Origin: an uncultured Armatimonadetes bacterium | GTDB lineage: Bacteria > Armatimonadota > UBA5829 > DTJY01 | Assembly: GCA_963717145.1 (NCBI GenBank) | Contig: OY970325.1 | Coordinates: 3,904,001 to 3,968,000, forward strand | Direction of reading: 5' to 3' | Length of the DNA: 64,000 nt | Shown here: piece by piece, positions 26,762 to 48,293 of the stretch | Numbering within the stretch: the first letter of the stretch is position 1 | Layout: each line of letters starts with the position of its first letter | Position numbers and translations under genes: made by a program | Notes under the pieces: generated by a model | Told to the model about the DNA's origin: nothing | Database searches by the model: none | The model's input: only the letters and a program-made list of their open reading frames with translations

Positions 26762-28261
26762 GTAAGAGTTCACGATCATTGATAATCTGAGGAAGGTACC
26801 CCAGGATCGGCTGTCGAATGGTAGGTTGTGAACGATCTCGGCAACCTATCAAGAGAAGAACTGATCGGCATCGTCTTGGAGCAGCACCAGGCGATCCGAG
26901 AGCAGCATCAGGCCGTCCTGGAGTTGCGTGAAGGTGTAGACACCCTGACCGAACGCGTCCGAGCGCTTGAGAAGGAGAATGAAGAACTCCGGTCCAAGCT
27001 CGGTGGCGGCGGCAGGACGATACCTGCCTTTGTGAAGGCAAACCGGCCCGAGCGCAAGAAGAAGGATCGCAAGAAGCGGCAGAAGTCGTTTGCCCGCTTG
27101 AGGGAGACCCCCACGGAGATCGTGGAGCACGCGCTCGACACCTGTCCCGACTGCGGCAGGAAGCTCTCCGGCGGCACGATGCATCACAGCCGGCAGGTGA
27201 TCGAGATACCGGTGATGCCGGTCAGGATCATCGAGCACCTGGTGATCGGACGGTACTGCGGAGTCTGCCACAAGATACACGTGCCGAAGCTCGACCTCTC
27301 CGAAGAGGTGGTCGGGACACACCGGGTGGGCATCCGGCTGATGAGCCTGGTGAGCTATCTCCACACGGTCGGTAGAATGCCGGTCGAGCGTGTGCAGAAG
27401 CTTCTGGAATCACTCTACGGTCTGCATCTCGGGCGCGGAGAGATCACAAAGATACTACATACGGTAGCATCCATGGGGAAGTCGGAGGTAGAGAAGCTTC
27501 TTCATGCGGTGCGGGGAAGCCCTGCGGTGAACGCGGATGAGACCGGCTGGCGGGAAGACGGGAGGAACGGATACATCTGGAGCTTCTCGACGCCACGCGT
27601 GCGCTACTTCATCCGAGACAAGAGTCGGAGCGGAGAGGTCGCAAAGGATGTGCTGGGAGAGGACTACGGCGGTGTAGTCGTAAGCGACTTCTACTGCGGT
27701 TACAACGTGCTCTTGGGGCGGCATCAGCGGTGCTGGGTGCACTACCTGCGGGACTTGCGAACGCTCGTCGAGGCGAACCCTGACAAGAGAGGGGTAGCAG
27801 TCTGGGTCGGCAAGGTCAAGGCCGTTTACAGACGCGCGAAGAGATATTCGAACGAGGAGTCGAAGGCTCGGCACGAGCAGCGGATCGCATTCGAGGAAGA
27901 GTTGCTTCGACTCGCCAGACCATATGTGAAGCGGGATGTTCCGCAGAGGATACTCGCTGAGCGGATCGAGAGATTCCTGCCGGAGCTGTTTGTCTTCGTA
28001 GAATGTCCGGAAGTACCAAGCGAGAACAACGCGGCCGAGCGAGCGATCCGGCCTGCGGTAACGGCTCGCAAGATCAGCGGCGGCACACGGTCGGCCAAGG
28101 GATCTGAGACCCGCATGGCGCTGATGAGTCTATTCGGGACCTGGCACTTGCGTGGTGAAGATGCGATGGAGTCATGCCGGCGGATGCTCATGGGCGTTCC
28201 TCAGACACCCGCGACCGATCCAGCCTGACAAACTTCACTATCAACGATCGTGAACTCTTTC
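26762..28261 (+). mobile_element. IS66-family element, single-ORF ISBst12-like (1500 bp), distinct from the first
   Basis: IRs GTAAGAGTTCACGATCATTGATA and GAAAGAGTTCACGATCGTTGATA; 8-bp TSD TCCGCATG at 26754-61 and 28262-69. Confidence 0.95.
26828..28228 (+). CDS. IS66 transposase
   Basis: CPDCG, ADETGW, HQRCWVHY and ENNAAERAIR motifs. Confidence 0.95.
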   Translation: MNDLGNLSREELIGIVLEQHQAIREQHQAVLELREGVDTLTERVRALEKENEELRSKLGGGGRTIPAFVKANRPERKKKDRKKRQKSFARLRETPTEIVEHALDTCPDCGRKLSGGTMHHSRQVIEIPVMPVRIIEHLVIGRYCGVCHKIHVPKLDLSEEVVGTHRVGIRLMSLVSYLHTVGRMPVERVQKLLESLYGLHLGRGEITKILHTVASMGKSEVEKLLHAVRGSPAVNADETGWREDGRNGYIWSFSTPRVRYFIRDKSRSGEVAKDVLGEDYGGVVVSDFYCGYNVLLGRHQRCWVHYLRDLRTLVEANPDKRGVAVWVGKVKAVYRRAKRYSNEESKARHEQRIAFEEELLRLARPYVKRDVPQRILAERIERFLPELFVFVECPEVPSENNAAERAIRPAVTARKISGGTRSAKGSETRMALMSLFGTWHLRGEDAMESCRRMLMGVPQTPATDPA

Positions 28262-30654: not shown

Positions 30655-30685
30655 CTGCCGGTCGGAAGCACGACGCATGATTGTC

Positions 30686-30826
30686 CCCCGTAAGAAGGGG
30701 GACCGGCCTCTGGGCCGAGGGGGTCTTGTCCTGCGAACCTCCCCCGGCCTGCTGGCCGGCCCCTCCTTCGTAAGGAGGGGCGCAGACGCAGACCACGAAA
30801 AAGAGGGCGAGGTTGCCCTCGCCCCA
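30686..30826. repeat. Intergenic palindromic repeat cluster and terminator-like hairpin
   Basis: CCCCTCCTTCGTAAGGAGGGG and GGGCGAGG-ttgc-CCTCGCCC hairpins between convergent genes. Confidence 0.55.
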
Positions 30827-30894: not shown

Positions 30895-32776
30895 CTAGAA
30901 GCCTGTCGACCAGGCGAGACGCCAGAGGTTGAACATGCCGTCGTTGTTCGGGTCGATCTCGTCATTCCAGTCCGACAGCGAATATTCGATGAGGACGCGC
31001 TCCCTTTCGGTCAGGTTGCGGGTGAACCCGATCGTCCATCGGTTGTCTCTCACCTCGACGGGATTCCAGACCCTCAGGAAGAGTCGGATCGCCCGGTACG
31101 AGCACGCCGACGTTCATCCTGCCCGTGGATTTCGACGTCAGGAATCGCCAGTACAACTGGGATTTCGGCGACGTCGCATAGTTCAGGCCGACCGAGAATT
31201 GCCTGTTCCGTGCATTATACGGAACGTCTGCGGTCGAGACAGGATCGAGAGCATGAGGAGCGAGTTCCCAGAGCGTGGTCGCATCGATCCGCGCAGCGGA
31301 AGCAAGAACATCGAGGGTCAGCTTGCCATTGATGCCATACCATGCTCCCAACATAGTATCGGTGAACTTGCTGTCGAGCCCCGCGTCATCCCGCTTCTCG
31401 TCATGCAGGCGGTGGTAGTCGCCGTAGAAGACAAGTCGGTCGTTGTATAGATACGTGGCATTCAAGCTCGCCTTTTTCCGACCGCCGGGAGAGCTCTTGA
31501 AGGCGGCATTGTCGATGTTCCAGTCCTCCATCTTGCCTGAGAGGCTCAGCTTCCAGTTCGGATTGTAGCGGAAACTGGCGCGCCAGATGTTCGAGGTAGT
31601 CGTCGCATTCATCAACTCGTCGAGGTCCGGGTCATCCGGGAAACCGTTTGCCAACGTCCGCTCGGTCTTCTTGCCCTCGTATCCGACGCGGATGAGAGCC
31701 TTACGTATCCCCGTATAGCCGGATTCAACCTCCACGGACCGTTCTCTTCGACTGAGCGCTATGTTCGTCGGCGGATCTCCTGGGGCATCAATCACCGGGC
31801 CCATGTGGTTGTCCAGCTCGTAGTCCCGGTATCTTCCGGTAAGCGTGAGCGCTCCAGTAGCCAGAAAAGTGAGGGCGGCATTGGTCGAGTTCAGATCGAC
31901 GCTCCTGCCATTTACGAGGCTCTCGGTCTTGTTCGTTCTCTCACGCTGGATATGCACGCCCGTGAAGTACAGACGGTCTGACAGACGGCTCCTCGCTCGA
32001 ATCACATTGGATGTGGTCTTGATGCTCGGGATTATTACCGTGCTCGGACGGTCTGCCGCAATCGACGACCGTCCTCCGTCCTCGAAGCTGTGATTCTCGT
32101 AGCTGTAGGTGACGGCGGTGCCGCTTCCCAGCCGCAAGTCGAGCCCCAGCGTTCCCTGATCGCTACTCCGATCGATCCCGAAGTCCACACTCTCCATTCG
32201 ACTCGGACCGGAGCCGCGGTAGTTGAACTGCATGACGCCATTCTCGGACTCCTGCCACCAGTTGGCCCTGTAGGCAATCCTTCCCGTGTTCGGGGTCAGC
32301 CGGAAGCCGATCTCATTCACTCGCCGGTTTATCTCGAGCGGGTTGCCCGGCGTAAGATCCACGACGAGCCCTCCCGTGATGCCCAGAGGCGACAGATACG
32401 GATCGACCCCGGGTATGCGCACGAGCCTGTGCAGCATGGAACTGGTCTTGGCGCTCAGGGAAAACTCATTCCGGACGCCCATCTTGAATGATATGTCCTC
32501 GTCACCGACTATCAGGTCCCGTGCATCGAGCCAGTACTGAAAGTCTCCACCGTAGCCGTATGAGTCGATCGATTCGATCCCCCAGAGGTCGAACCTTCGG
32601 CCGTCATACTCGCGCACTGTGTCCTGATTGCCGCTCTGGTCGTGGGTATACAGGCCGATTCCCACCTCAGTGCGCTCGTCCTGGCCTTTCAGCAGATCCG
32701 ACTGTCCGAGAGCGGGGACACATATGATCACTGCAACAAACAGCACTATCGCTATCGTTCTGCAACAAAAGTTCAT
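30895..32776 (-). CDS. mtrB: MtrB/PioB-like outer-membrane beta-barrel (one frameshift near 31070)
   Basis: Directly follows the decaheme gene; signal peptide; alternating beta-strand pattern; shifting frame near 31070 gives ...NLWRLAWSTGF*, a BAM-type terminal Phe. Confidence 0.75.
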
Positions 32777-32806
32777 CTGCTTTCCTCCTCTTCTCACTCC
32801 CATTCG

Positions 32807-33853
32807 CTACTCGAAGAGCGCCTCGTGGGTATCCGAACCGTGTATCTGCGTGTGGCAGTTCGTACACGTGGCGTAGCGCTGTGCGAATCTGCCGATATCT
32901 CCTCTCGGCGAGTGTGTTCCCGTGTGGCACTTCATGCACAGGAACGGCTCGTTCTGGAGTTGCAGCTTGTTGTTGACCGAGCCGTGCGGGTTGTGGCAAT
33001 TGGTGCATTCCTCGGTTACCGCGGGATGCTCGAACACGAACGGACCGACCTTCTCTGCATGGCATTGTCTGCACGTCTCGTCCACGTTCTCTTGTTTCAG
33101 CATGCCGTTTGGCCCGCCATGAGGGTTGTGGCAGTCCGTGCACTTAACCTTGCCCTCCGCGATCGGATGATGCGAAGGCATCCTGCTCTGGACTTCCTGC
33201 TGCTTGTGGCAGTCAAAGCAGACATACGGTTCGATGCTTCGTCGGTAAGCGGTTTCGGCCCCCTTGAGCTGCTTTCGAGCCTCCTCGAGTTCGGCCGTGA
33301 GTTCCTTGACCTTCTTGTTGGCCGCAAGCTTGTCTTCGCTGCCCGCGGGAGCGACGTTCGATCCCACATCCGTCTGCTTGATCGCTCGAGTGAGTCCTTG
33401 TACGGAGAGCTTGGCGTTTTCCACGTCGCTCAGCAGCTTCTTTTCGCCTTCGCTGTGCAGATCATGGCACTTGATGCAGCTCACCTTGGCTCGAGCATGG
33501 ACGCTCGTCTGCCACTGGGTGACATGCTCTCCGGAGTGGCACTTTAGGCAGGTATCCGCCAACTTGTTCGGTGGCAACTCCTGCGGCCTGATGATCTTCT
33601 TGATGTCGCCGCCGCCTTCGACATGCGCTCCACCCGGCCCGTGGCATGCCTCGCATCCGTTCTGCGAAGGCTCCTTGTTGAAGAGCATTCGTCTGTGAAC
33701 GGTGTGAGACCACGTCTTGACCGTGTCCGCGTGACACGTGGAGCATACCTCACTGCCAATGTACTTGGGCTCGTCCTGTGCTTGGCCCGTGTAGAACCAG
33801 ACCAATCCCAGAACCAGGCAGAACACAAGGGTAAATGCAAGTTTCTTGACCAT
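32807..33853 (-). CDS. mtrA: MtrA/DmsE-family decaheme cytochrome c
   Basis: Signal peptide; 10 CxxCH; CEACHGPG, SHHP...CTDCHNPHG, GPFVFEHP and CHTQIHGS motifs. Confidence 0.9.
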   Translation of the reverse strand: MVKKLAFTLVFCLVLGLVWFYTGQAQDEPKYIGSEVCSTCHADTVKTWSHTVHRRMLFNKEPSQNGCEACHGPGGAHVEGGGDIKKIIRPQELPPNKLADTCLKCHSGEHVTQWQTSVHARAKVSCIKCHDLHSEGEKKLLSDVENAKLSVQGLTRAIKQTDVGSNVAPAGSEDKLAANKKVKELTAELEEARKQLKGAETAYRRSIEPYVCFDCHKQQEVQSRMPSHHPIAEGKVKCTDCHNPHGGPNGMLKQENVDETCRQCHAEKVGPFVFEHPAVTEECTNCHNPHGSVNNKLQLQNEPFLCMKCHTGTHSPRGDIGRFAQRYATCTNCHTQIHGSDTHEALFE

Positions 33854-34148: not shown

Positions 34149-35939
34149 CTAAGGGTTCGGATGACACATGGCGCAGTACTCCTGCTTATGGCACTTGAAG
34201 CAGGGCGAACCCTGCGCCAGGCTCGCACCATGCTTCTTATGATCCATTACCCAATTTTCGGGGTGCGGCATCTCTGTTTTGTGGCAATTCATGCAGTTTT
34301 TGCTGTCATGGCAGTTCAGACAGCTCTTGTTGCCTGCTTTCGCGGTCTTGCCGTGTGCCTTCAGCCACTCGCCTTTATGAGAGGACGGCATCAGATTCGA
34401 GTGACACGCATCGCAGAAGCTCTTGGTATGGCAGGTCGTGCAAGTCGTCGATCGGGACTGGCCGCCATGATTCTTCATCCACGCAGGCGACGAGCTGTGG
34501 CTCGCAGGTTTCGTCCCCCGGTGGCAGGCCACACAGAAGCTCTCCTCGTGGCACTTCTTGCATGCCGCCCTGTTCTGTTTCGCCACCGGTCGGTGCGCCG
34601 TCTTCCAGTTCGACGGGTGAGGCATCGTCATGCCGTGACAACTGCTGCAGAAATCCCTGGTGTGACACGTGTTGCACAGCTTGCTGTTGATCGCCGCCTG
34701 CGCGGGATGCTGCTTTGTCCAGTTTGCGGCGTGCGAAGCCGGTTTCTGCGTCTTGTGGCACTTCATGCAGAATTCCGACTTGTGGCATGTCGTGCAGTTC
34801 GCGCTCGACTGCTGGGCGGGATGTCCGTGAGTCCGCAGCCAGGTGGCATTCGCGTGCGAAGCCGGGGTCTTACCCTGGTGACACCCGATGCAGAACTGCT
34901 CCTGGTGGCAATTCTTGCAGGAATCGGCCTTCTGTTTTGCCTGTCCGGGATGCATCTGCAGCCAGTTCTTCGGATGAGTCTGATAGCGCTGATGGCAATC
35001 CGAACAGAAGAGGCGCTCGTGGCACTGGTCGCATGTCCCGGGAGATCGGCGGAACTCCTGAGGGTGCTTGGACAGCCAGTCGAGTTCGTGAGCCCTCTTC
35101 ACTGAGTGGCAGTCTGTGCAGAAACTCTTGGCATGACAGACCTCGCAACTCTGGGGTTTCTTCCGGAACTCTGCCGGGTGAGAGTTCCGCCAACCCGGCG
35201 CGTGCGGGGTCGCCATTCGGTGGCAGTTCTTGCAGAAGTCCTCCTGGTGGCACCGCTTGCAGGAGTCTCGATCGTTCTTGACCTCCTGTTTGTGGCCCTC
35301 GACCCACTCGGGAGTGAACACGCTGGGTTGTCGCATGCCTAATGTTTCATGGCATAGCCCGCACGTATTGGGAGCCTTCTTGCCGTCGTGACACTTGAAG
35401 CAGGTGTCCATCTTCGGCGTATTCTTGGTGGCAGCGTTCGGGCCGTGGACTACGTTGTCGTGGCAGAATGTGCAGGAAATCCCGCGGTCCCAGTGCTTCT
35501 TGTGCGTAATCTTCAGTCCATGGTAGACGACCAGGTCTCGGGTTTCGGGATGGCATTTCTTGCAGTTTGCATCCGGGACATGCCCCTGGATGGCTCCCGG
35601 GTCAACGCCACCCTTCACGTGCTTATACACCTGGCGCATTGCCGAGAACTTGCTCTTCGCCATGTTCGTGAGGCCGGGCATGAGGTGGCATTCCTCACAC
35701 TGGACATCCTTATGCGAAGACTCACCCCATGTCGCATAGTGGACGTCCATTTCGTGGCAGGAGGAGCAGAAGATCGACCTGTTTGTGGCGGCTACTCCGC
35801 TGACCAGCGCGATGCCGAGAATCCCGAAGGCAATCAGGAGCATGCCCCAGCTTATGGTCCAGCGCACTATCGGTATAGTGATTCTGGTCTTCAGCAGGCG
35901 GATACAGGCCTCTCTGGAAACGAAACTAGGGGCTCTCAA
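34149..35939 (-). CDS. Membrane-anchored NapC/NirT-like multiheme cytochrome c, 26 CxxCH
   Basis: N-terminal TM then FCSSCHEM...W..SSH...CEECH (NapC-like); ten tandem diheme repeats. Confidence 0.9.
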   Translation of the reverse strand: MRAPSFVSREACIRLLKTRITIPIVRWTISWGMLLIAFGILGIALVSGVAATNRSIFCSSCHEMDVHYATWGESSHKDVQCEECHLMPGLTNMAKSKFSAMRQVYKHVKGGVDPGAIQGHVPDANCKKCHPETRDLVVYHGLKITHKKHWDRGISCTFCHDNVVHGPNAATKNTPKMDTCFKCHDGKKAPNTCGLCHETLGMRQPSVFTPEWVEGHKQEVKNDRDSCKRCHQEDFCKNCHRMATPHAPGWRNSHPAEFRKKPQSCEVCHAKSFCTDCHSVKRAHELDWLSKHPQEFRRSPGTCDQCHERLFCSDCHQRYQTHPKNWLQMHPGQAKQKADSCKNCHQEQFCIGCHQGKTPASHANATWLRTHGHPAQQSSANCTTCHKSEFCMKCHKTQKPASHAANWTKQHPAQAAINSKLCNTCHTRDFCSSCHGMTMPHPSNWKTAHRPVAKQNRAACKKCHEESFCVACHRGTKPASHSSSPAWMKNHGGQSRSTTCTTCHTKSFCDACHSNLMPSSHKGEWLKAHGKTAKAGNKSCLNCHDSKNCMNCHKTEMPHPENWVMDHKKHGASLAQGSPCFKCHKQEYCAMCHPNP

Positions 35940-36898
35940 CTCTTGTACCCCCCGTCGTCCGTCGCATCATGCTTCCCGCCGCCGTTGTTTCTGAGCTTCT
36001 CGCGCTCCGCTATGATCTTCTCGTATTCCAGCGGATGATGATGCATGATGTTCTCCTTGGATATCTTGCCGGTCAGCCACGTCCAACTCATGGGGAAGTT
36101 GTCCGGATTAAAATGCACGTTGTAGAAATGCCATATGATGATTGCCAATGTGGCGAGGAGCGCCTCATCGCTGTGAGCCTCATGAGCCATGTCCAGCGCA
36201 AACTTGGGCAGGAGCGCCATCGTCGTGTCCTGGAACCAGAGCATCAGCCCTGATGTGATCATGACGACCATTCCCCAGTATACTGCCCAATAATCGAATT
36301 TCTCAATGTAGCTGAACCTGCCGAACCTCGCTCCGATCTTCGAAAAGCCCAGAAAATACTTGACGTTTCTGTAGACGTCGGCAACATCCTTGAACTTCGG
36401 AAGCCACTCCATGATGTTGTGGCGTCCTTCCCTCATGGCTATGATGTAGAACACATGGAATGTGCCAACTGCCATGAGGCCGACCGCGCCGATCCTGTGG
36501 ATCAGGCCGCTCTGCGCGACGCCGCCGATAAGGCGGAAGAAAGCGCCCGCCCAGTCAGTGTTCGGGAATTTCAGAGGAATGCCCGTCACGATCAGTATGA
36601 TGCAACTTGTGAAGAGCGCCATGTGCTGCAATCGGAATACGATGCTGAACCGCTCGAATTCCTCTTCGTCGCCGAGCTTCGAGACTGCCGGAGCCTTCCG
36701 CCGGCGAGTCTTCTCTTTCGCGGCTACCTCGAGCCTGTCACGGAGTTCGCGCCGGAGCTGTTCCCGCACTTCATCTTTGGCCCGTGCCAGCGTTTCGGCA
36801 TCGAGTTTGGACCCAAGCTGCTCTGCAGCGGCATCCAACTCACTGTCTATGCTTTCATCGGAGATATGTTTATCGGTTATCGGTCTGTCTCCAGCCAT
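35936..36898 (-). CDS. Cytochrome b subunit (FdnI/CbcL-type)
   Basis: QH..., IHRIGA, YIEKFDYWAVYWG, AHSDEALLA and WHFYNVH motifs; charged N-terminal extension. Confidence 0.88.
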   Translation of the reverse strand: MAGDRPITDKHISDESIDSELDAAAEQLGSKLDAETLARAKDEVREQLRRELRDRLEVAAKEKTRRRKAPAVSKLGDEEEFERFSIVFRLQHMALFTSCIILIVTGIPLKFPNTDWAGAFFRLIGGVAQSGLIHRIGAVGLMAVGTFHVFYIIAMREGRHNIMEWLPKFKDVADVYRNVKYFLGFSKIGARFGRFSYIEKFDYWAVYWGMVVMITSGLMLWFQDTTMALLPKFALDMAHEAHSDEALLATLAIIIWHFYNVHFNPDNFPMSWTWLTGKISKENIMHHHPLEYEKIIAEREKLRNNGGGKHDATDDGGYKS

Positions 36899-36899
36899 G

Positions 36900-37634
36900 T
36901 TATCGTTCCGTTTCGATTAGCTCTCTGTCGTCGGCCTTCCGCTCATTGCCCACGATGCGCTCGTACTCCAGGGGATGATGCTCTTTCATCTCGTGTTCGG
37001 AGATCTCACCGGTGAGCCAAATCCTGCTCATCGGGAATACCTCCGGGTTGAGATGAACGTGATAGAAGTGCCAGATGATGATCGCGAGGAATGCGAGCAC
37101 GGCCTCGTAGCTGTGTACCACCAGGCCGATGTCCAGTGACCACTTGGGCAGCACCAGCATCGCTTGTTCCTCGAACCAGAGGATAAGGCCGGTGAGGATC
37201 ATGACCGCCGATCCCCACGCCAGCGCCAGATACTCGAACTTCTCGATGAAGTTGAAGCGATCGAACTTCGGTTTGTCCCGCTTCAGACCGAAGTAGTATC
37301 CGAGCATGTGGATCACGTCGAACAGGTCCTTCGGCTTCGGAATGAGTGCCATGAGTTCGCGGTGACCCCTGTTCGTGAACACGGTCCAACCAACGTGGTA
37401 AGTGCACACCAACATCAGGATGACGGCCGAGATGCGATGAAGCACCGATCTCGCCGTGAAGCCGCCCAGGAATCCTATCAGGTGATGCGCCCAGGCGGCG
37501 TCATCGTACCGGAGCGGCAAGCCGGTCAGCACCAGCAGGAAGAAGCTGATCATCATGAATATATGCTGCGTGCGCTGGCTGCGCGAAAGCCTCTCGAAAC
37601 GGCGCTCGCCCGTGAGAATGGATGAATCGGTCAT
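36900..37634 (-). CDS. Cytochrome b subunit (FdnI/CbcL-type)
   Basis: QHIF, LHRISA, FIEKFEYLALAWG, VHSYEAVLA and WHFYHVH motifs; TAATG coupling to the upstream gene. Confidence 0.88.
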   Translation of the reverse strand: MTDSSILTGERRFERLSRSQRTQHIFMMISFFLLVLTGLPLRYDDAAWAHHLIGFLGGFTARSVLHRISAVILMLVCTYHVGWTVFTNRGHRELMALIPKPKDLFDVIHMLGYYFGLKRDKPKFDRFNFIEKFEYLALAWGSAVMILTGLILWFEEQAMLVLPKWSLDIGLVVHSYEAVLAFLAIIIWHFYHVHLNPEVFPMSRIWLTGEISEHEMKEHHPLEYERIVGNERKADDRELIETER

Positions 37635-38932
37635 TACTTGCCATACCCCCTGCTGCCATTCCGGGAACGACGACGCCACCGCGAGATCAGATCCAGCGCG
37701 ATATAGGCGCAGAACGAGCCTATCAGCAGTATTATGAACCCGGTGTAGAAAATGCGCACCCAGTATACGCCCTTGTCCTTCTTGCTCGATGGGAGAACAT
37801 GCACCGACCCTTCAGCAAAGTTCTTACTGGCGCCGGGATGGCATACTCCGCAGGTCTTGGGCATGTTCGTCTTGTTGATCGATGACTTGGGGTCGCTCGC
37901 CGGCCTTATGTCGTGCGCTCCGTGACATGTCGCGCAGTTGGCGACGGTGATGTCGCCATACTTGTTGGCAACTCCGTGATAGCTCTCGATGTACGTACTC
38001 AGACGGTTGGCCGGCAACCCGTACTTGCGCTCGATTCTCATGTCCTCGTGGCACTTGGAGCAAGTGGCCACGACATGAGTCGGATAGACGGAGGAACGCT
38101 CCTCCGAAGGCTTGGCGATGGTATGCTCACCATGACAATCGGTGCAGGAGGGGGCATCCTTGATCCCGCTTCTCAGGGCCTGCCCGTGGATGCTTTCCTC
38201 GTAGGTCTTGTATATCTTCTGGTGGCATTTCCCGCAGGTCGCCGGTATGTGAGGCTTGCTGACGGTCGAGCCCTTCTCCTTCGCGGCCTCTATATTGTGG
38301 ATGCCATGGCAGTCGGTGCACGTCGCGGCAGCCAGTAGACCCTGCTTGTCGACTGCCTTGCCGTGAACGCTGTCCCGGTACAGCCGGATCGTCGCCGGAC
38401 CGGGAATATTGTGCCGCTCTGTCATGGCGGTATCGGAGTGGCACTTGCCACACGTGTGCGCGATTCTCGATCTGTATGTGCTGGACTTCGGATCGCTCGG
38501 CGCCTTGATGCCATGTGTGCCGTGACAGTCTTTGCAGTTGGGAGCGTCCTTGTCCATTCTCTTCACGGCCTGACCGTGTACGCTGTCCGCATATTCCGTC
38601 ATGGGACTCAGATTCGGCGCGCCGACCGTATTGTCTATCTTGTGACACCGGCTGCAATTCACGGGGTCCGCGTTCTGCTTGTGGGGAAAAGACTGGCCCG
38701 CGAGATCTGTGTGACAGTCCTCACATTTCCTGCCCGCATGCACCGATTGCTGGAGTTCGCTTGCTTCGACATGCAGGGACATCTGCTTGCCGCCTATGGT
38801 CTTGCTCAATCCCTTGGCACTGTGGCACATGAGGCACTTGCCGGAGTCCACCATGGTGGCCGGCGTGGCCGGAGATGCGAGCGCAATAGCGACAACCGCC
38901 ATCAAGCAGGATAGTATCGATCTTCTGAGCAT
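37634..38932 (-). CDS. CbcL-like multiheme cytochrome c, 11 CxxCH, C-terminal TM anchor
   Basis: Signal peptide; repeated Y..S(V/I)HG...CxDCHG.H.I; C-terminal TM and Arg-rich tail. Confidence 0.88.
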   Translation of the reverse strand: MLRRSILSCLMAVVAIALASPATPATMVDSGKCLMCHSAKGLSKTIGGKQMSLHVEASELQQSVHAGRKCEDCHTDLAGQSFPHKQNADPVNCSRCHKIDNTVGAPNLSPMTEYADSVHGQAVKRMDKDAPNCKDCHGTHGIKAPSDPKSSTYRSRIAHTCGKCHSDTAMTERHNIPGPATIRLYRDSVHGKAVDKQGLLAAATCTDCHGIHNIEAAKEKGSTVSKPHIPATCGKCHQKIYKTYEESIHGQALRSGIKDAPSCTDCHGEHTIAKPSEERSSVYPTHVVATCSKCHEDMRIERKYGLPANRLSTYIESYHGVANKYGDITVANCATCHGAHDIRPASDPKSSINKTNMPKTCGVCHPGASKNFAEGSVHVLPSSKKDKGVYWVRIFYTGFIILLIGSFCAYIALDLISRWRRRSRNGSRGYGK

Positions 38933-38959: not shown

Positions 38960-40027
38960 CTACCGTGAAGCCCTTCGCCGCCGGCGCTTTGCGTACAGAT
39001 CGAGCAGTATGTGACCGATCAGAGCCACCATCGTGCATATCGTCAGCCACTTGAACGCGGTGCTTACGTAGTATAGCACTGACTGTTCTCCGTGTGAGAT
39101 TATGACGTGTATCTTTCCTTTGGCAAAGTTCTCGTTTGACCCCGTATGGCACTTACCGCACGTCTTGGGCAAATTCGCCTTGCTGACACTCGACTTGGGA
39201 TCGCTGGACGGGCGTATGTTGTGCGCGCTGTGACAGCTTGCACAATTCGCCACGGCCGGATTTCCAAACTTGTTCGCCACACCGTGATAGCTCTCACGGT
39301 ATGTCGCGTATCGTTCCTTGGGAATTCCGTACTTCTTCTCGATAAGCAGGCTGTCATGGCACTTCGAGCAGGTCTCCGGTATGGTGGTCGCATATACGGA
39401 GGAAGCTGGATCCTTCGGCGACTGGATGGCGTGCTCTCCGTGGCAGGTCGTGCATACCGGAACGTCGGGGTTGCCATGCAACAGAGCTTGTCCGTGAATG
39501 CTCTCGCGGTAGTCGCTGTATATGTCGATATGGCATCGGCCGCACATCTTCGGAACCTCTGCCTTGTTGACGCGCGACTTCGGGTCCGACGGTTTCCTGA
39601 TGTCGTGTCTGCCATGGCAATCCTGGCAGGTCGGGGCGCTCGTATTGCCGGATGCAAGGGCGCGCTTGTGGATGCTTTCACGGTATTCGGCGGGTTTCTT
39701 CGGCATTTTGATGCCCTGGATCTTCTCCACGTAGTGGCACCGCCCGCAGTTCACCTTTTCGATGTGATCCAGGCCGTGAGGAATCCGTTTGATGTCGTTA
39801 TGGCAATCGGTGCAAGCGCGTTGGGAGTGGACCGTCTTGGCGAACTCCGCGCCGTCCACGTACAGCGAGATCGTTCTGCCGTCAGCCATGGTCTTCTTGA
39901 GCTTCGGATCGTCATGGCAGCCCAGACACACGCCGTTATCCCTGGATGACTCCAGGTTCACGGGTATCGATGCGGCAGACGCGCTCGGACCCGCAAGCCT
40001 GAACAGAAGTGCCAGGCAGGCGGTCAT
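38960..40027 (-). CDS. CbcL-like multiheme cytochrome c, 9 CxxCH, C-terminal TM anchor (start uncertain)
   Basis: Paralog of the adjacent gene; 9 CxxCH; C-terminal TM and RRRRR. Confidence 0.85.
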   Translation of the reverse strand: MTACLALLFRLAGPSASAASIPVNLESSRDNGVCLGCHDDPKLKKTMADGRTISLYVDGAEFAKTVHSQRACTDCHNDIKRIPHGLDHIEKVNCGRCHYVEKIQGIKMPKKPAEYRESIHKRALASGNTSAPTCQDCHGRHDIRKPSDPKSRVNKAEVPKMCGRCHIDIYSDYRESIHGQALLHGNPDVPVCTTCHGEHAIQSPKDPASSVYATTIPETCSKCHDSLLIEKKYGIPKERYATYRESYHGVANKFGNPAVANCASCHSAHNIRPSSDPKSSVSKANLPKTCGKCHTGSNENFAKGKIHVIISHGEQSVLYYVSTAFKWLTICTMVALIGHILLDLYAKRRRRRASR

Positions 40028-40166
40028 GTGGAATACTCTGACGTTTTGAACTATTGTACCTTTTTTCACTAATTTGCCCCGGACACTGTAGTATATCACA
40101 CAATGCCCTGATCTAGTCAAGAGGAAATTCGTAAAAACGGGTACGTGAGGAGGAGGAAATTCGGGG

Positions 40167-40240
40167 CTCCGTAGTGGCCGTGCCTCTGTGCCGGCCAAGT
40201 GACCTGGCATGGCCGGCACAGATGTACGGCAACTACGGAG
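40167..40240. repeat. GTAG-type REP doublet, copy 1
   Basis: GTAGTGGCCG.GCCTCTGTGCCGGCC...GGCCGGCACAGA...CTAC; near-identical copy at 44045-44113. Confidence 0.85.
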
Positions 40241-40298
40241 CTTCCGTCTAGCCCGCATTATTCATGACCTGCTGAAGTCAGCACATGAATAATGTGGG

Positions 40299-43253
40299 CT
40301 AGAAAGGCGGAGGGGGCGGTACGCCGCCGACCGGCTCGATATCGGTCGAGCGGATCACTCGGATGATCTTGTCGCCGCTCGTCTCGGAACCGGAGATGCC
40401 GGTGACCTCGAGGTATGTCGATCCGGGCGCCGTCCCGTACACCTTGACGCCCGTGCGCCCCGGATCCGTCGGAACGTTCGATCCGTCATCGAGATAGAAG
40501 AAGCCGGTCTCGGAGTACGTCACCCTGCCCCAGACCTTCACCCGCAGCCCGATGTTGTACGGACCTGATGCGCCGGTGACTGTGCAGTAGCCCGGGGTCG
40601 GCCCGATGCCGCCCAGATCCTCGATGACCAGTCCGAGCGGTCGGGGGATCGGGTTGCCCGTGCCCAACACTTGGGCCGTCGATGCATCGATCAGGGTCTC
40701 GCCGTTGATCTTTTTCAGCCGTCCGGTGAAAGTCACCATCGAACCCGCCGCGCAATCTTCGAGCGACTTCACGCCGATTCCGAACGTCCTGAGATACTGC
40801 ACGTAGAATCGGTCGCCGGGGAACCCGGCGGAGACCACCCGGTTCGGAATGGTAATGTACGCGCCCTCGTAGAGCCCTCTCAACTCACCAAGCCCGGTCA
40901 GGCTGAGCTGGTTGTCGATGTAGAGCCCCTTGGCGCGGGTGCTCTGGTAGGGCCGGTCATCGTAGCTAGCGTAGGCTGCGAGGATGCGCCCAGTTGGACC
41001 GGCGCACATCGTTCCGCCGATCTCCGAGGTCGAGCTGCTGAGCACGTTCACCCCGTTGATGCCGATGAGCTGGTTATTCGAGCTGATCCGCGTGAACTGC
41101 AGGTCGGACTGCATGGCGGCCCCGCATGCAGGGTCCGGGTTGGCGATCGTCCACGTGAGCACATAATCGAGGCCGTCCCAGAAGAAGTTCATGTTCTCCT
41201 GAACCGTAGCGTTTGCCGTCACCACAAGGGGGACGGGAGGCACACCGGGAGACGTACCGAACCATTTGTACACGGAGTCCCACCCGCCGTATGAATGAAT
41301 CTCCGATCCCCGTGAGATCAGCCGCAAGGTCTGGCCATTCCAGACCAGGTGGAACTCGGATGGGCTGGAGGCGTCGGTAAACTGCCGTGTAGTACCCAGT
41401 GCCCCAGCCTGGGTTATCGTAGTATAGGCTATGGCATTGGACGTGGTCGGATGCTTCCAGACCAGCACATAGTACTGCCCCGCCCAGCATGCGGCGATTT
41501 CGCCGCTATAGCCGCTGGATCCCATGTATACTCCAATATCCGAGACCAATGAGCAATCACGCCGGATAAGCGCCGCCCGGTATTTGCTGGTGCTGATCCT
41601 GTATGCGATCAGGCACTTCTCGCCGTCGGTCGTGATCGACCAGCCGGTCGGGGCGCCGTTCGTCGATACGACGATGCTGATCGGCGCCGGATCGAGCACC
41701 GTGCCTGACGGGGATATTCGCAGGGCTTTGAGAGTGGAGCCATCGACCCACACGAGGATGAAGTTCTCGCCGTTCCATATCGCGCGTGGACCGATGCCGG
41801 CGTCCGGGATGGGCATGATCTCGAATGGCGTGGATGCGATCGGCTGACCGGTGTTCGGATCGGCCAACGCGCCCTTCAGCGTCCGGCCGGCCTCGGTCCA
41901 TTCCTCCCAGCAGACGAGGAACCTCTGTCCGTTGTAAGCCGAGCACAATGGCTTGTGCTGGGACGCCGACTCCGCAAGACGGCGCTCCGTCCCGACGCTC
42001 GGCGTACCTTCGGCGACGTTGACGACGGCCTCGACGACCTGCGTGCCGAATCCGACCATGGTCGGGCCCCTGTCATCCGTCCAGCAGATCAGTACGGAGT
42101 CCTGGAGCGTCTCGTCGCTCATGAGCGCCACACTCGTCCTGGCTTGCCGTCCGTCTGCCGAGCAGACGGCGAACCCATTGCCATCGAGGGCCGTGCCTGC
42201 AGCGCCAAGCCTCCCGGCATAGATGTCGGCCCCGTCGGTTACCCTCCGGGTCCACGTCACTATGCAGTTGTGGCCGTTGTAGGCGATCTGAGGATCGAAC
42301 TGCCGCTCGGTTACTGAGCTGACGGTCCAGGGCTCTGTATCAAGGAGAGCGCCGTTCTGATCGAAGCGCATGCCCTTGATCTCGCGTCCGGCCGGTTCAC
42401 CGTCGGCCCACACGGCCTTGAAGTGATCGCCCGCCCAGCAGCAGTCGGGCGTGTCCTGGGAGGTGGTCCCGGCGTATACCGGCACGCCGGAGGTGTTGAC
42501 GACTCCCGTGTCTCCGACCAGTTCTGCTGCCCAGAGATCGTTCGATGTTCCGTTCGACACGGAGTTCCTGCACCAGACGATGAGGCTGCGGCCTGTGGGA
42601 GTCGATGCGACTGCGGGATTGGTCGCCGCAAAGCCGTCCCAGGTCGGGCTGCCGGGCGCAATGTTGATAGGCGCGCTGTCGAGGACCGTGCCGGTCGGGG
42701 TCAAGCGCACCGCGTATACGCCGAGCAAGCCTTGCGGGCCGTCGCCCGACCAGATGACGATCCAGTTTGCGCCGTCCCACGACACTCGGGGCGCGCACTC
42801 GCTGTGGTAGGATGAGATCACAATCGGCTGCTGGGACAGAATTGCCCCATCCGCCGAGAGTCGGATACCATAGATCAGGTTGCCCACAGCGCCGACGGCA
42901 TTCGCGTAGACGACAAAGTACTCCTGGCCGTTGAAGCAGATGTCGGGCCTGCCGAGGACGCACGCATGGTTCGTCAGCCGGATGTTCCCCGGATCGAGCA
43001 CCGTTCCAGTCGGGCCGATGTGAGCGGCGAACAGATCGGCTATGTTGCCGGCGTCTCTCATGTCGACCCAGACGGCCATGAATGAATCGGTCTCTCCCGC
43101 GACGACCGGATTGGTCTGGAGGCGGCCGGTGGACTGCTTCACGACCTCGGAGTCGAAGGAGGCCGGCTGCCCAACTGCGTATGCTCCGAAGCATGTGCCG
43201 CAGATCGACAGGATGAGGACAGCGACGATAGTGTATGTGCGTATGGTTTTCAT
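40299..43253 (-). CDS. Large secreted protein, about 14 beta-propeller-like repeats plus shared C-terminal domain
   Basis: AGGAG RBS and signal peptide; P.(V/I).W.G..(Y/F).V.W repeats; ends GGVPPPPPF. Confidence 0.85.
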   Translation of the reverse strand: MKTIRTYTIVAVLILSICGTCFGAYAVGQPASFDSEVVKQSTGRLQTNPVVAGETDSFMAVWVDMRDAGNIADLFAAHIGPTGTVLDPGNIRLTNHACVLGRPDICFNGQEYFVVYANAVGAVGNLIYGIRLSADGAILSQQPIVISSYHSECAPRVSWDGANWIVIWSGDGPQGLLGVYAVRLTPTGTVLDSAPINIAPGSPTWDGFAATNPAVASTPTGRSLIVWCRNSVSNGTSNDLWAAELVGDTGVVNTSGVPVYAGTTSQDTPDCCWAGDHFKAVWADGEPAGREIKGMRFDQNGALLDTEPWTVSSVTERQFDPQIAYNGHNCIVTWTRRVTDGADIYAGRLGAAGTALDGNGFAVCSADGRQARTSVALMSDETLQDSVLICWTDDRGPTMVGFGTQVVEAVVNVAEGTPSVGTERRLAESASQHKPLCSAYNGQRFLVCWEEWTEAGRTLKGALADPNTGQPIASTPFEIMPIPDAGIGPRAIWNGENFILVWVDGSTLKALRISPSGTVLDPAPISIVVSTNGAPTGWSITTDGEKCLIAYRISTSKYRAALIRRDCSLVSDIGVYMGSSGYSGEIAACWAGQYYVLVWKHPTTSNAIAYTTITQAGALGTTRQFTDASSPSEFHLVWNGQTLRLISRGSEIHSYGGWDSVYKWFGTSPGVPPVPLVVTANATVQENMNFFWDGLDYVLTWTIANPDPACGAAMQSDLQFTRISSNNQLIGINGVNVLSSSTSEIGGTMCAGPTGRILAAYASYDDRPYQSTRAKGLYIDNQLSLTGLGELRGLYEGAYITIPNRVVSAGFPGDRFYVQYLRTFGIGVKSLEDCAAGSMVTFTGRLKKINGETLIDASTAQVLGTGNPIPRPLGLVIEDLGGIGPTPGYCTVTGASGPYNIGLRVKVWGRVTYSETGFFYLDDGSNVPTDPGRTGVKVYGTAPGSTYLEVTGISGSETSGDKIIRVIRSTDIEPVGGVPPPPPF

Positions 43254-43267
43254 GTCCACTCTCCTCC

Positions 43268-43963
43268 TCAGTTGCTCACCGCAGGCTTGGGCGCTTCGAG
43301 CCGCAACCAGATCTGCCCCTGGTATGGTCCGTTGTCCCGCAGGTTGTACTGGTCGATTGTCATTGACGACACGTGCCCATCGATCCACAGCACATTGCCT
43401 GTGCTGTTGTGCCTGGTCGCAAAACGACGGCAGGTCGGATCGCCTGGGACGTATTCCACTGGAAGTGCGGCAAAGATGGTTCCTCCCGCACTTCCAGGCC
43501 ACTGCGTCTCGGCGATGCGAATCGTGGATGCCGGGTACCTGACCGACTTGAGTTGAACCACGACCGGAGTGCTACCCTCAGACATCCATCCACCGCACTT
43601 CATGTTCATCCCGTAGCTGCGCCCGGCGCTAAAGCTCTCCTGCCCGGACAGACCGGGTAACGGGCACTTGAATGGGTTGCCCTGACTGCTACTCGAATGG
43701 CCAATATACCGGTTTAGCAAGTCAGGCCACATCGTCCCACCCCATGCGAACGGCGCGCCGTAGGGTACCAGGACGTCATCGAAGTCGGCCTGGTACATGT
43801 CGGACGCCACTCCGAGGGCCTTCAGGTTCTCGGCGCAGGCGACCTGGCTGCTCAATGCGCGAGCATGCCTCAGCCCCACAGCAAGTATCGGCGCGAGCAC
43901 GAGAATGACGGCCACGATCGCCGCCAGGTCCTTCACTCCAAACCGCTGGTGTTTCCTTTTCAC
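43268..43963 (-). CDS. H-X9-DG pilin-like protein (degenerate prepilin N-terminus)
   Basis: N-terminal TM, C..NLK.LG.A..MY..D, SYGMN and RHNSTGNVLWIDGHV motifs. Confidence 0.85.
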   Translation of the reverse strand: MKRKHQRFGVKDLAAIVAVILVLAPILAVGLRHARALSSQVACAENLKALGVASDMYQADFDDVLVPYGAPFAWGGTMWPDLLNRYIGHSSSSQGNPFKCPLPGLSGQESFSAGRSYGMNMKCGGWMSEGSTPVVVQLKSVRYPASTIRIAETQWPGSAGGTIFAALPVEYVPGDPTCRRFATRHNSTGNVLWIDGHVSSMTIDQYNLRDNGPYQGQIWLRLEAPKPAVSN

Positions 43964-44537: not shown

Positions 44538-47500
44538 CTACTCGGGCGCGGAATCGATCGCCGACCATCCGGTCGCTCTGATGATCCTATGTACGCCTAC
44601 CGTGCCGTACATGTACCGGGAACTGATCCCGGTCACCTTGATGAAGCTGCCTTCGGCAGGGAGGTTCTGAGGGTCTGCAAAGACCATCACACCAGGAGTC
44701 CATTCGTTGTCCATCGTGCCCACGCCGTCGTCAAGGAAGAAATGATCGCCGCCAACGTTGGTAACCTTGCCGATTACCCTCACCCGGAGACCGGTATTAT
44801 AGAGACCTGACAAATTTTCGATGGTGTTGAAGTACGGACTGGCGGCGACGCCGCCGAGATTGCGACAGATCATGCCGATCGGGTCCGGCAAGGGATTCGA
44901 TGTGCTGATGATATTAACGTCGGATGATTCTATAGTGACCTCGCCGTCGAGCCTCCTCAGTCTGCCGCTGAAGGAGACTGCATTACCGGGAACCGGCGAA
45001 CCTTCGCTGCGGGGAGACTTTACCCCTATGCCGAACGAGCGGCCTTCCTGAATGTAGAAGTAGTCGTACAGACGGGGTCGGCCGTCGGAATCACGGTAGT
45101 ATCTTGGCCACAGTGCGGTCACCACCTCGCCGGGAACGTTGACGTGGGCGCCTTCGTAGAGCTGACCGATCTGCCCGACGCTGCTCACCGTCAGCCAGGC
45201 GTCGAGGAAGAGCCCCTTCGCCCGCGTGGACTGGTACGGCGGGCCGTCCGAGTTCGAATATGCGAGGAAGGCGCGGCTCGGAGGTCCGGCGCACATCGAG
45301 CCGCCGAGTTCCGACAAGGGAGTATCAGTAACGGAGATGGGCACGATGTCAACGAGTTGGTTGAAGTAGCTGACCCGGGCGGCCATCATGTCGTCCTGCC
45401 AACTCTGAGCGCTCGCAGCGTCCTCTTTGCCGGACAGCCATGTAAGGATGTAGTCCGCGCCGTTCCACGCCACGTTCACGCAGTCGGCGCCGGCGGATTG
45501 CGGGATGATCAGAGGCGTCGTATCCAGCAGATTGCCGGCCAGAGAAAACCTCCTGGTGACGATCTGCGGACCGTATGCCGCCAGGAGGACGTTCTGCCCG
45601 TTGCAGGCGAGCCTGAAGTAGTCGGGGTACGTTTCGTCGGTGATCCTCTTCAGGATGGAGAGCCCCCCGCCGTCCGCATTCACGGTCTTGTAGTCAATGC
45701 CGCCTTTCACCAGAACGCCTCCCGACGTGCTGTAAGCTTGCTTCCAAGCTATGAAGTAGCTTTGGCCGGTCCAGCAGACGGCCACACCCTCGTGGACCGC
45801 ATTGCTCTTCGATGCGCCGATGACGATGGAGGAAGATACCGTGCCGTCACGGGAGAGCAGCTTCCCGTTGACGTTGCTCCCCATCCTGAGCACGACTAGA
45901 CATCGATTGCCGTCCGAAGCGATCGCCGGTTGGACGTAGATGGGGCTCGTGACCCCATCATAGACGATGATGCCCTCCGAATCGAGCACCGTACCGGTGG
46001 GAGTCACTCTGGCGGCCATCACTTTCTTGTGAGCGATCACCCCGGACCCGGGGTATAGGTCAGCGCCGCCGAGCCACGTCACGACGAAGCTCTCGCCGTT
46101 CCAGGCCGCGCTCGGGAACGGGTTCTCGATCAGCAGCGGAGAGATCACAAACGGCTCGGACGTGACCGGCTCGCCGGTGTAGGCGTCGATCAGCTCCCCA
46201 TAGAGATTCCGCGCGCCGTCCCGCCACTCATCGAAGCAGACGAGGAACTGCCGGCCGTTGTAGGCCGAGCACGATATCTTGTGCTGAGGCGCGGACTGCG
46301 TAAGCGGGAACTCCTCTCCGGCCAGGATCCCGGTGGAGTAGATCCGCCTGCCCCGGACCTGGAAGCCGAGGTTCGGCACGGTCGGGCCGACATCGCTCCT
46401 CGAATCCATCCAGCAGACCAGGAAGTTCACGCCGAGCGATCCCACGCACGGCTTGATCTGCCGGTCGTCCGCGGTGCACACGGGGAAGCCCGACCCGTCG
46501 AGGAGCGTTCCGTCCGAATACACGCGCCCGGCGTAGATATCGAGCTGACCCGCCGCCGAGCCCTTCCGCGTCCAGGTCACCAGGGAGTTCGTGCCGTTCC
46601 ATGCGACCTGTGCATCGGATTGCTTCTCCGTGACCGAGCTGATGTTCAGGACCGCCGGATCGAGTAGACCACCGTCTGTCCCGATGCGCCTGCCCCGTAT
46701 GCTCCGAGACTGATCGCCGTCCTGCCACACGACCATGAACTGACCGCCGGCCCAGCACACGTCCGGCATGTCCTCGGCATTGGCAGTGGCGGAGATCGGA
46801 ATGGGAACCATCTGAGCGCCCGGCGCGTAGTCGAGAATCGCACCATAGACGTCCGAAGATGTGCCGGCCACATCGGGCTGCGACCAGACCACGAGCGTAT
46901 CGCCGTCGGGCGAGGATGCCACATCCGGATCACTGCCGGCAGCAACACCGGTGGGCTCCGTGCCAACCGGGACGCCGCCCGCGCTCACACGGCGAGCCAT
47001 TATCACGTCGATGAGCTTGCAGGGAACCCAGATGCAGTTCTCCACGGTGTCTTCATACACCACCACGTGATTCTCGCCGTCCCATGATACGCAAGGCTTG
47101 CGAGCAGTCCCTGTATCGCATATCACGGCGGGAGCCTCGTCCACAATCACGCCGTCGGGCGAGACCCTGAGGCCGAGTATCTCCGTGCCGACGACTCCCG
47201 TGTTGTTCGCATACACGACGAAGAAGTTCTGACCGTTCCAGCAGACATCCGGCTTGCCGGTGACGGATGCGTGGGTGGTGAGTCTGATGCCGAGGGGATC
47301 AAGGACCGTACCGTCCGCCGCGATGCGGGTGGCATAGAGGTCCGACCCGCGTCCGGCGTCCCTCATATCGACCCAGACCGCCAGGTAGATGCTCCCTGAA
47401 CTCGTGATCACGGGGTTGGACTGGAACCAGCCCGTCGAGCCGGCCACGATCGCCCCGGTATCGAGTGGGACCGGCTGCCCGAGGGTGTAGTCAGCGTAAC

Positions 47501-47561
47501 ATGTGCCGCAGATGGATGAAAGAATAAGTGCAATGATAAGGCACAACCGCATGTTTCTCAT
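44538..47561 (-). CDS. Large secreted beta-propeller-repeat protein plus C-terminal domain (paralog of 40299-43253)
   Basis: AAGGAGG RBS; signal peptide; collinear repeats with the paralog. Confidence 0.85.
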   Translation of the reverse strand: MRNMRLCLIIALILSSICGTCYADYTLGQPVPLDTGAIVAGSTGWFQSNPVITSSGSIYLAVWVDMRDAGRGSDLYATRIAADGTVLDPLGIRLTTHASVTGKPDVCWNGQNFFVVYANNTGVVGTEILGLRVSPDGVIVDEAPAVICDTGTARKPCVSWDGENHVVVYEDTVENCIWVPCKLIDVIMARRVSAGGVPVGTEPTGVAAGSDPDVASSPDGDTLVVWSQPDVAGTSSDVYGAILDYAPGAQMVPIPISATANAEDMPDVCWAGGQFMVVWQDGDQSRSIRGRRIGTDGGLLDPAVLNISSVTEKQSDAQVAWNGTNSLVTWTRKGSAAGQLDIYAGRVYSDGTLLDGSGFPVCTADDRQIKPCVGSLGVNFLVCWMDSRSDVGPTVPNLGFQVRGRRIYSTGILAGEEFPLTQSAPQHKISCSAYNGRQFLVCFDEWRDGARNLYGELIDAYTGEPVTSEPFVISPLLIENPFPSAAWNGESFVVTWLGGADLYPGSGVIAHKKVMAARVTPTGTVLDSEGIIVYDGVTSPIYVQPAIASDGNRCLVVLRMGSNVNGKLLSRDGTVSSSIVIGASKSNAVHEGVAVCWTGQSYFIAWKQAYSTSGGVLVKGGIDYKTVNADGGGLSILKRITDETYPDYFRLACNGQNVLLAAYGPQIVTRRFSLAGNLLDTTPLIIPQSAGADCVNVAWNGADYILTWLSGKEDAASAQSWQDDMMAARVSYFNQLVDIVPISVTDTPLSELGGSMCAGPPSRAFLAYSNSDGPPYQSTRAKGLFLDAWLTVSSVGQIGQLYEGAHVNVPGEVVTALWPRYYRDSDGRPRLYDYFYIQEGRSFGIGVKSPRSEGSPVPGNAVSFSGRLRRLDGEVTIESSDVNIISTSNPLPDPIGMICRNLGGVAASPYFNTIENLSGLYNTGLRVRVIGKVTNVGGDHFFLDDGVGTMDNEWTPGVMVFADPQNLPAEGSFIKVTGISSRYMYGTVGVHRIIRATGWSAIDSAPE

Positions 47562-47578
47562 GTCGATCCTCCTTTCGC

Positions 47579-48293
47579 TTAGTTTGCTGGTACCGCCGGC
47601 TTCGGACCTGTGAGCCGGAGCCAGATGTTGCGATTCGCCTGAGCGTCCATCATGTTGTACTGCGCGAGGGTCATCGCGGATACGTGGCCGTCGATCCACA
47701 GCACATTGCCCTTTCCGCTGTGCCGCTCTGGCAACTGCTTGGAGTATGGGCTGCCGTCGTACTCGATAGGCAGTGCGGCGAACAAACTGCCGCCGCTGTT
47801 TCCCCGCCAGGTCACTTCGGCGATCCTGATCGTGGCATGTGGATATCTGATCTCGGATACGGGAACAACATCAGCCGTGCCTTGATCTATCTGAGACTGA
47901 CTCATCGCGCCACCGCAGTAGATGTTCATGCCATAGGTCCGCTCATCCATATACCCTATATCAGGTCGGCTTGGGCACTGGTATTCAGGGGATAGATTGG
48001 CCCCGCTCATCCTTCCACCGGGTATCTTGTGGATATATGCGTCCAACAACTCGGGCCACATGTGGCCCGTCCAGGCGAACGGCATGCCATAGGGGACGAG
48101 GACATCGTCCCAGATCCGCCTGGTACATGTCGCACGCGACGCCCAGGCGCTTGAGGTTCTCGGTGCACCTCTGCTGCTCGGATGCCACCCTGGCACGGTG
48201 AACTGTGCAGGCGAGGACGGGAAGAAGAATGAGTATGGCTGCGATGATCGGCAGCAGGTCGTGCAAGTAACCGGTGTTCTTACTCTTATGCAT
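47579..48293 (-). CDS. H-X9-DG pilin-like protein (one frameshift near 48113)
   Basis: MHKSKN...CTENLKRLGVACDMYQAD joins WDDVLVPYG...RHSGKGNVLWIDGHV on removing one base. Confidence 0.8.

Follow-up and report, generated by a model that had tools for sequence, protein, structure and literature searches.

The gene at positions 34149-35939 (-) of the window (the whole stretch of 64,000 nucleotides that was analysed) encodes a protein in which an NrfH-like heme base with a predicted membrane anchor is followed by ten tandem diheme repeats. We give somewhat better than even chances to its being a tethered wire, in which electrons would pass from a Cbc-like cytochrome b/c quinol oxidase encoded next to it through the repeats to a partner at the C-terminal tip, here probably the MtrA-like decaheme. 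The protein is called the rod below. Docking of the rod on MtrA and a role of the rod as a length ruler are conjectural.

The rod operon

The genes and protein segments discussed are the following.

38960-40258 (-), nine-heme cytochrome c with a C-terminal hydrophobic helix and CbcA-like architecture; the true start is probably later than the ORF start
37634-38932 (-), 11-heme cytochrome c with a C-terminal hydrophobic helix and CbcA-like architecture
36900-37679 (-), membrane cytochrome b 1 (PF01292, FdnI-like)
35936-36898 (-), membrane cytochrome b 2 (PF01292), its stop overlapping the rod start
34149-35939 (-), rod gene, 26-heme protein of 596 amino acids (ORF call and CxxCH count)
35784-35849 (-), predicted transmembrane helix of the rod, residues about 31-52 (hydrophobic sequence; helix H31-52 in the model)
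35436-35783 (-), NrfH/NapC-like tetraheme domain of residues 53-168, in which heme 1 has a CxxCHxM motif and Lys97 is conserved (sequence and structure match)
35343-35540 (-), c7-like triheme (hemes 4-6), residues 134-199; heme 4 is common to the NrfH part
34161-35348 (-), ten diheme repeats H-x3-6-W-x3-H-x9-12-CxxCH-x4-CxxCH, residues 198-593
34161-34280 (-), terminal repeat, its last heme likely without a distal His of its own
32807-33853 (-), DmsE/MtrA-family decaheme, 348 amino acids as called (TIGR03508, 243.1 bits, cut-off 192.2)
30895-32803 (-), MtrB-like outer-membrane barrel gene (PF11854, 26.2 bits, cut-off 23; tblastn)
30804-30825 (-), terminator-like hairpin past the barrel gene (matched by consensus alone; such hairpins numbered 10, compared with 7.4 in shuffled sequences)

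The genes abut in a single minus-strand run in the order CbcA-like (two), cytochrome b (two), rod, MtrA-like, MtrB-like. The rod gene starts with TTG, which overlaps the stop codon of the upstream gene. The MtrA-like decaheme carries an insertion of ~80 amino acids between hemes 4 and 5, which is predicted from sequence to be helical and is conserved among its close relatives. The MtrB-like barrel scored 18.9 with TIGR03509 (cut-off 240), and its gene shifts frame near 31069, so that the last 57 residues are in another frame, through an assembly error or a real lesion; the public contigs do not span this site. No MtrC-type or other evident extracellular multiheme protein was found in the rod operon. 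The host genome encodes Omp85, and the host is therefore diderm.

Just past the operon, at ~30680-30790, lies a short element that was matched by many contigs at very high depth and is probably a multicopy repeat. Elsewhere in the window an IS66-family transposase is encoded at 26828-28228 (+), and two related secreted-looking proteins of ~1060 amino acids with internal repeats at 40299-43502 and 44538-47699 (-); the former had no Pfam or NCBIfam match. A second multiheme cluster (L115, G000:C1 5.04-5.05 Mb) comprises genes for 4-, 16- and 9-heme proteins, for four hexahemes and for a pair of NHL propellers, and a similar cluster is present in genome G026. The propellers had at first been read as porins. 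One of the hexahemes was compared with the PDB and gave no support for an OmcS-like identity at E 0.01 or better.

Diheme repeats of the rod

Of the 26 CxxCH motifs, six lie within residues 58-197 and the others form ten pairs, as originally predicted. The spacing within the pairs is always four residues and the unit length varies from 38 to 43 amino acids. A regular expression close to the motif of the original prediction matched nine of the ten repeats (repeat 8 differs by its W-to-H offset) and had no match in 2000 shuffled versions of the protein. The claim that nearly all repeats supply two extra His, enough for bis-His ligation of both hemes, agrees with the count: repeat 1 has one extra His and repeats 2-10 have two, with three in two of them. 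This makes 21 non-motif His for 20 hemes, 19 of them at the two canonical positions because repeat 1 has just one. The heme density, given earlier as about 19 amino acids per heme, was calculated as 19.8 for the repeat region and as 22.9 for the entire protein.

At the DNA level no tandem repeat was found in the rod gene. The duplications are therefore old, and recent tandem expansion can be ruled out. DNA contigs of a relative ~94-95% alike span the gene, with no indels other than compensating ones, and the closest rod homologues are 596-600 amino acids long.

Searches with the repeats against NCBIfam matched no model, Pfam returned weak matches to generic heme models only, and a sequence search of the PDB gave no convincing match. 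With the apo model of the repeats (pTM 0.46), Foldseek found nothing at E 10 or better and structure comparison found none of 48161 PDB chains at Z 2 or more; for such a model the absence of matches would neither show a new fold nor exclude a known one. AlphaFold2 gave pLDDT 79 and pTM 0.41 for the whole rod, and pLDDT 80 with the above pTM for four repeats. The rod models display a regular helix/CxxCH pattern along the repeats, which fits a string of locally folded helical units and gives no length. Covariation in 569 three-repeat windows was dominated by a lineage signal between the Trp residues and did not separate a rod from a solenoid. Apart from this signal, 22 of the top 40 pairs fell within one repeat (a weak tendency). 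In the ESM Atlas the top cluster was an Armatimonadota cluster labelled c7. A c7 polymer was ruled out, as the rod has a single c7-like unit and its repeats are diheme with a different motif.

The predicted membrane-anchored base

The base of the rod combines an NrfH-like tetraheme with a c7-like triheme that overlaps it. Together with the predicted N-terminal helix this upholds the NapC-like anchor of the original prediction. In a phmmer search the base matched 2j7a with E 4.8e-8 (rod residues 38-165), the model of the base aligned with 2j7a_C over 130 residues (Z 6.0, rmsd 4.0), and PF03264 scored 57.3 bits (cut-off 24.1). As a whole the rod missed the NCBIfam cut-offs (TIGR03153, 45.7 against 134.2; TIGR02161, 26.4 against 310.6).

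Residues of the putative quinol site were compared in the target and its 80 best hits. The NrfH-type features CxxCHxM at heme 1 and the quinol-site Lys97 are well preserved: Met64 of the motif was kept in 81/81 sequences and Lys97 in 78/81. An acidic residue at the position of the NrfH Asp, likewise part of that site, is mostly absent from the rod family: position 103 is Gln in 34, Leu in 19 and Glu in 16 of the 81 aligned sequences. One turn further, His107 is present in 76 of them. NrfA was not found in the host genome, and PF02335 stayed below cut-off in all five rod genomes searched. As there was neither a CxxCK multiheme protein nor a PF02335 match over cut-off, a role as the NrfH of an NrfA was ruled out.

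Proposed chaining of the hemes and the C-terminal tip

Long and short forms of the protein differ by a His swap at the junction between base and repeats. All 79 long forms that could be parsed have His140 and lack the first His of repeat 1, whereas all 68 parsed short forms show the opposite pattern, with that first His but without His140. These counts omit the rows that did not parse, and they represent one swap between two groups, essentially a single evolutionary event. The simplest reading, which the swap suggests, is that every repeat uses its first His to ligate the last heme of the preceding unit. A point of caution is that repeat-only lipoproteins keep the first His despite having no preceding heme.

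With such chaining the last heme of the chain would be left without a His of its own, and no His follows this heme in any of 80 homologues. Among 15 homologues of the same length the mean conservation of the terminal repeat was 0.39, compared with 0.22-0.37 for repeats 2-9 and 0.51 for repeat 1. The tip repeat was most conserved in genomes G005 and G010 (0.70 identity against 0.26-0.48 for internal repeats). As no MtrA was found in these two genomes, tip conservation does not point to MtrA. The tip type seems to track the MtrAB type, a relation confounded with kinship.

Genes associated with the rod

The constant partner of the rod is a Cbc-like cytochrome b, which had been overlooked in the original prediction. 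A cytochrome b gene lies within 1.5 kb of the rod gene in 30 of 31 loci, and the minimal conserved unit across loci consists of CbcA-like protein, cytochrome b and rod.

A full MtrA-like gene was present within the fetched stretch in 10 of the 31 loci, many of which are short contigs. In five of these ten it is an MtrA-barrel fusion of ~1000 amino acids encoded 5-7 kb upstream of the rod (L020:1-2634, L023:1339-4455, L031:1768-4713, L096:733-3891 and L099:797-3829), in which a DmsE/MtrA decaheme is joined to a barrel-like domain of ~450 amino acids with Phe at the end. When whole genomes were searched, 20 of the 27 with a rod had a DmsE/MtrA decaheme (G132 is ambiguous). It was not found in G004, G005, G010, G011 and G026, which are 97-100% complete, or in G021 (69%). 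TIGR03508 exceeded its cut-off in 14/19 rod genomes and in 28/232 others, in a sample of one phylum whose related members are not independent. The supposition that the rod works with MtrA is favoured by the neighbouring MtrAB-like genes and by this enrichment, and it is weakened by the five near-complete genomes; the refuting case named in the original prediction, homologues lacking porin-cytochrome genes, occurs in a minority of genomes.

Gene order rod-MtrA-MtrB is retained in G001 and G006, where the rods are lipoproteins with 7 and 5 repeats and linkers of 44 and 43 residues, respectively. Close relatives pair lipoproteins of 5-7 repeats (40-44-residue linkers) with the same MtrAB, and this speaks against repeat number as a strict ruler. 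Of the proposal that repeat number sets the length of the protein, the variation in copy number held and the strict dependence was weakened.

A heptaheme with a signal peptide was encoded in 22/26 rod genomes and in 10/24 genomes without rod. This soluble-looking protein is often found in the rod locus, so that bridging without a soluble shuttle, as in the original prediction, is no more than a possibility. It is also often found beside cytochrome maturation genes; ResB, CcsA-like and HemA-like genes are frequent neighbours (e.g. of L118:17023-17979 in G000). One homologue (L023) weakly resembles OcwA and c554.

Repeat number and distribution of the module

The survey of repeat number, as had been proposed, covered the target and its 80 best hits (n=81, a few of the hits being fragments). 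Repeat number varied from 4 to 13 with a mode of 11, mostly in Armatimonadota forms, and was exactly 10, 11, 12 or 13 in 68 of the 81. No relative of 1044-2980 amino acids scored (a weak test). The named rod relatives are mostly Armatimonadota. A base-domain tree placed the long forms in one group with their kin of 4-6 repeats, apart from the ImdcA/PdcA type, with support 92/97, just under the threshold of the tool.

Judged from its sequence matches, the diheme repeat is a portable module that varies in copy number and in the base that carries it. A four-repeat profile matched 1856 representatives at E 1e-10 or better. Among the best 150 of these, the bases preceding the repeats were NrfH-c7, lipoprotein signals and FdnI-type (P0127, P0159, P0177, P0189) or bc-type cytochrome b. 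The bc-type cytochrome b together with a monoheme c is fused to 6-9 diheme repeats (P0082, P0084, P0085, L020:13778-15001, L031:12517-14700), and this fusion is sometimes encoded two genes downstream of the rod. Further fusions join a half-MtrA domain to two repeats that end with the same tip type (L025:11814-12776, L113:11090-12211, L103:4302-5216), and are encoded beside or near the rod gene. Short forms of Bacillota and Actinomycetota consist of the six-heme base and two to three repeats; one form has none. Among loci L032-L042 and L045-L094, Actinomycetota clusters encode as many as six short cytochromes with repeats along with cytochromes b, and many Neobacillus/Bacillus genomes have a conserved pair of 10- and 12-heme proteins.

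Proposed mechanism and alternatives

In the tethered-wire reading the cytochrome b pair would oxidise quinol, perhaps together with the NrfH-like heme 1. The hemes would be bis-His ligated and the units chained head to tail by the first repeat His, with the sixth ligand of the terminal heme open or supplied by the partner. From the tip, electrons would be handed to MtrA and flow outward. In MtrA and GSU1996 one heme accounts for about 8-10 Å. At this spacing the 20 hemes of the repeats would make an extended, probably hinged rod of roughly 160-200 Å. This estimate is comparable to the 170 Å quoted for the periplasm in the available text of PMC11492766.

The tethered wire is favoured by the operon order, by cytochrome b in 30/31 loci and its fusions to the repeats, and by MtrA in 20/27 genomes, as well as by the His swap, the absence of His past the last heme and the 68/81 forms with 10-13 repeats. 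It is weakened by the genomes in which MtrA was not found, the short lipoproteins, the soluble-looking heptaheme, the frameshifted barrel and the Gln/Leu at the quinol site. As the main alternative, the rod could be a CbcC-like storage and distribution arm of a CbcBA-like quinol oxidase, holding ~20 electrons and making transient contacts with several acceptors, including soluble cytochromes such as the heptaheme, instead of docking on MtrA across the full periplasm. We regard this alternative as rather unlikely. It is favoured by G004, G005, G010 and G011, in which CbcA-like protein, cytochrome b and rod stand alone with few other multihemes. The range of 4 to 13 repeats agrees with it, as does the transfer of electrons by weak contacts from Geobacter CbcA to CbcC and PpcA-family proteins (available text of PMC13591261). 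The clustering of anchored forms at 10-13 repeats, and the MtrAB genes or MtrA-barrel fusions nearby in several families, fit a span better.

The same wire might also run inward and supply the quinone pool with electrons that an MtoAB/PioAB-like conduit takes up from Fe(II), humics or partner cells. NapC-type proteins can work in both directions, and the operon is without an MtrC-type outer cytochrome. In an Armatimonadota UBA5829 MAG the MtrA homologue clusters with those of the MtoA and PioA type (PMC9671151, available part). Against this, the best-studied relatives, ImdcA/PdcA and CbcBA, act outward in Fe(III) reducers in the portions of PMC7911101 and PMC13591261 available, and we consider inward flow improbable. 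It appears to us slightly less probable again that the repeats form a compact multiheme domain, superhelical or folded back, that serves the cytochrome b complex locally and stops short of the outer membrane. At the pTM values given, the models do not fix the relative placement of the repeats, and conservation of the tip where MtrA is absent would suit a structural cap or a contact back on the complex; yet the free gain and loss of single repeats and their grafting onto many anchors fit an open-ended chain, as do, weakly, the strongest covariation pairs, which apart from the Trp signal are mostly within one repeat.

Around the tethered wire a wider proposition can be built, which we put forward tentatively and hold for possible rather than probable. 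The H-W-H diheme unit would be a hitherto unrecognised, self-chaining wire module that bacteria lengthen by single repeats (0-13 copies) and graft onto NrfH, FdnI- or bc-type cytochrome b, lipoprotein and half-MtrA. In Armatimonadota 10-13 copies would turn an ImdcA-type quinol dehydrogenase into a single polypeptide through which the quinone pool is wired directly to the outer-membrane conduit. No diffusing carrier would take part, and the polypeptide would dock via its open terminal heme.

The NrfH-like base, the short forms and the idea of periplasm-spanning multihemes are of kinds already known. For the repeat as a portable unit, and for the long NrfH-anchored form with a Cbc-MtrAB operon in Armatimonadota, no description was found in the accessible part of the literature searched, subscription journals being outside its scope. 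Single-chain periplasm-spanning cytochromes have so far been proposed from models (PCC3, Desulfuromonadia), and a direct demonstration was not found in the available text of those sources. With 0 to 13 repeats on the same conserved base, the rod family is a natural length series, in which the spanning idea can be tested by relating length and electron-transfer rate to repeat number. The rod also suggests an architecture for ImdcA and PdcA, and the repeat could serve as a diheme building block of 38-40 amino acids for engineered wires. The operon suggests that Armatimonadota possess machinery for extracellular electron transfer, a subject on which this phylum has to our knowledge barely been studied.

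Comparison with known systems

Like the rod, GSU1996, with its four c7 units, is a wire of tandem heme modules. The similarity is confined to hemes 4-6, and the unit of GSU1996 is a c7, whereas the rod repeat is a diheme helix unit. Single-chain spans of the periplasm have been proposed for the periplasmic multiheme of PCC3 (21-27 hemes; PMC9900912, PMC5566968) and for predicted wire cytochromes of Desulfuromonadia (PMC11492766); the available parts of these papers do not describe them as NrfH-anchored. PCC3 combines a porin with extracellular and periplasmic multihemes and a membrane protein of five helices, where the genes of the rod operon are for PF01292 cytochromes b, a DmsE decaheme and an MtrB-like barrel.

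The operon as a whole resembles Geobacter CbcBA/Cbc5 in architecture, with a C-terminally anchored multiheme, a cytochrome b and a further multiheme (PMC13591261, available text). Unlike CbcC, a dodecaheme in the same source, as third member, the rod is anchored, has an NrfH-like domain of its own and 26 hemes, and lies next to MtrAB-like genes. With NrfH, NapC and CymA the rod shares the N-terminal helix, the tetraheme in register, CxxCHxM and the conserved Lys. It differs from them by 22 extra hemes, by a site residue that is mostly Gln or Leu and by the lack of NrfA in the genome.

The closest counterparts are ImdcA (Tfer_0070) and PdcA (Tfer_1887), decahemes of Thermincola ferriacetica, a likeness that the original prediction had missed. 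According to the available part of PMC7911101 both are low-spin multihemes for which an outward relay of electrons from the quinone pool has been proposed, and modelling of their structures did not succeed. The comparison was made through proxies matched to primers of that paper. The PdcA primer in the available supplement of PMC7911101 encodes H-x3-W-x3-H-P; L141 matches (by eye) this peptide and a second primer peptide, and the C-terminus of L043 matches the peptide encoded by the ImdcA primer. L141 is 25% identical to the target rod over 344 columns (E 2e-17). The proxies have, like the rod, the six-heme base followed by H-W-H diheme repeats, two in number, and ImdcA and PdcA would then be built likewise. 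These decahemes carry 10 hemes with 13-28 residues inside the heme pair, compared with 26 hemes and 4 residues in the rod. Hosts of this type are monoderm, and the Bacillota forms have no cytochrome b or MtrAB nearby, whereas the rod host is diderm. Judged from the proxy sequences, the rod looks like an elongated ImdcA/PdcA.
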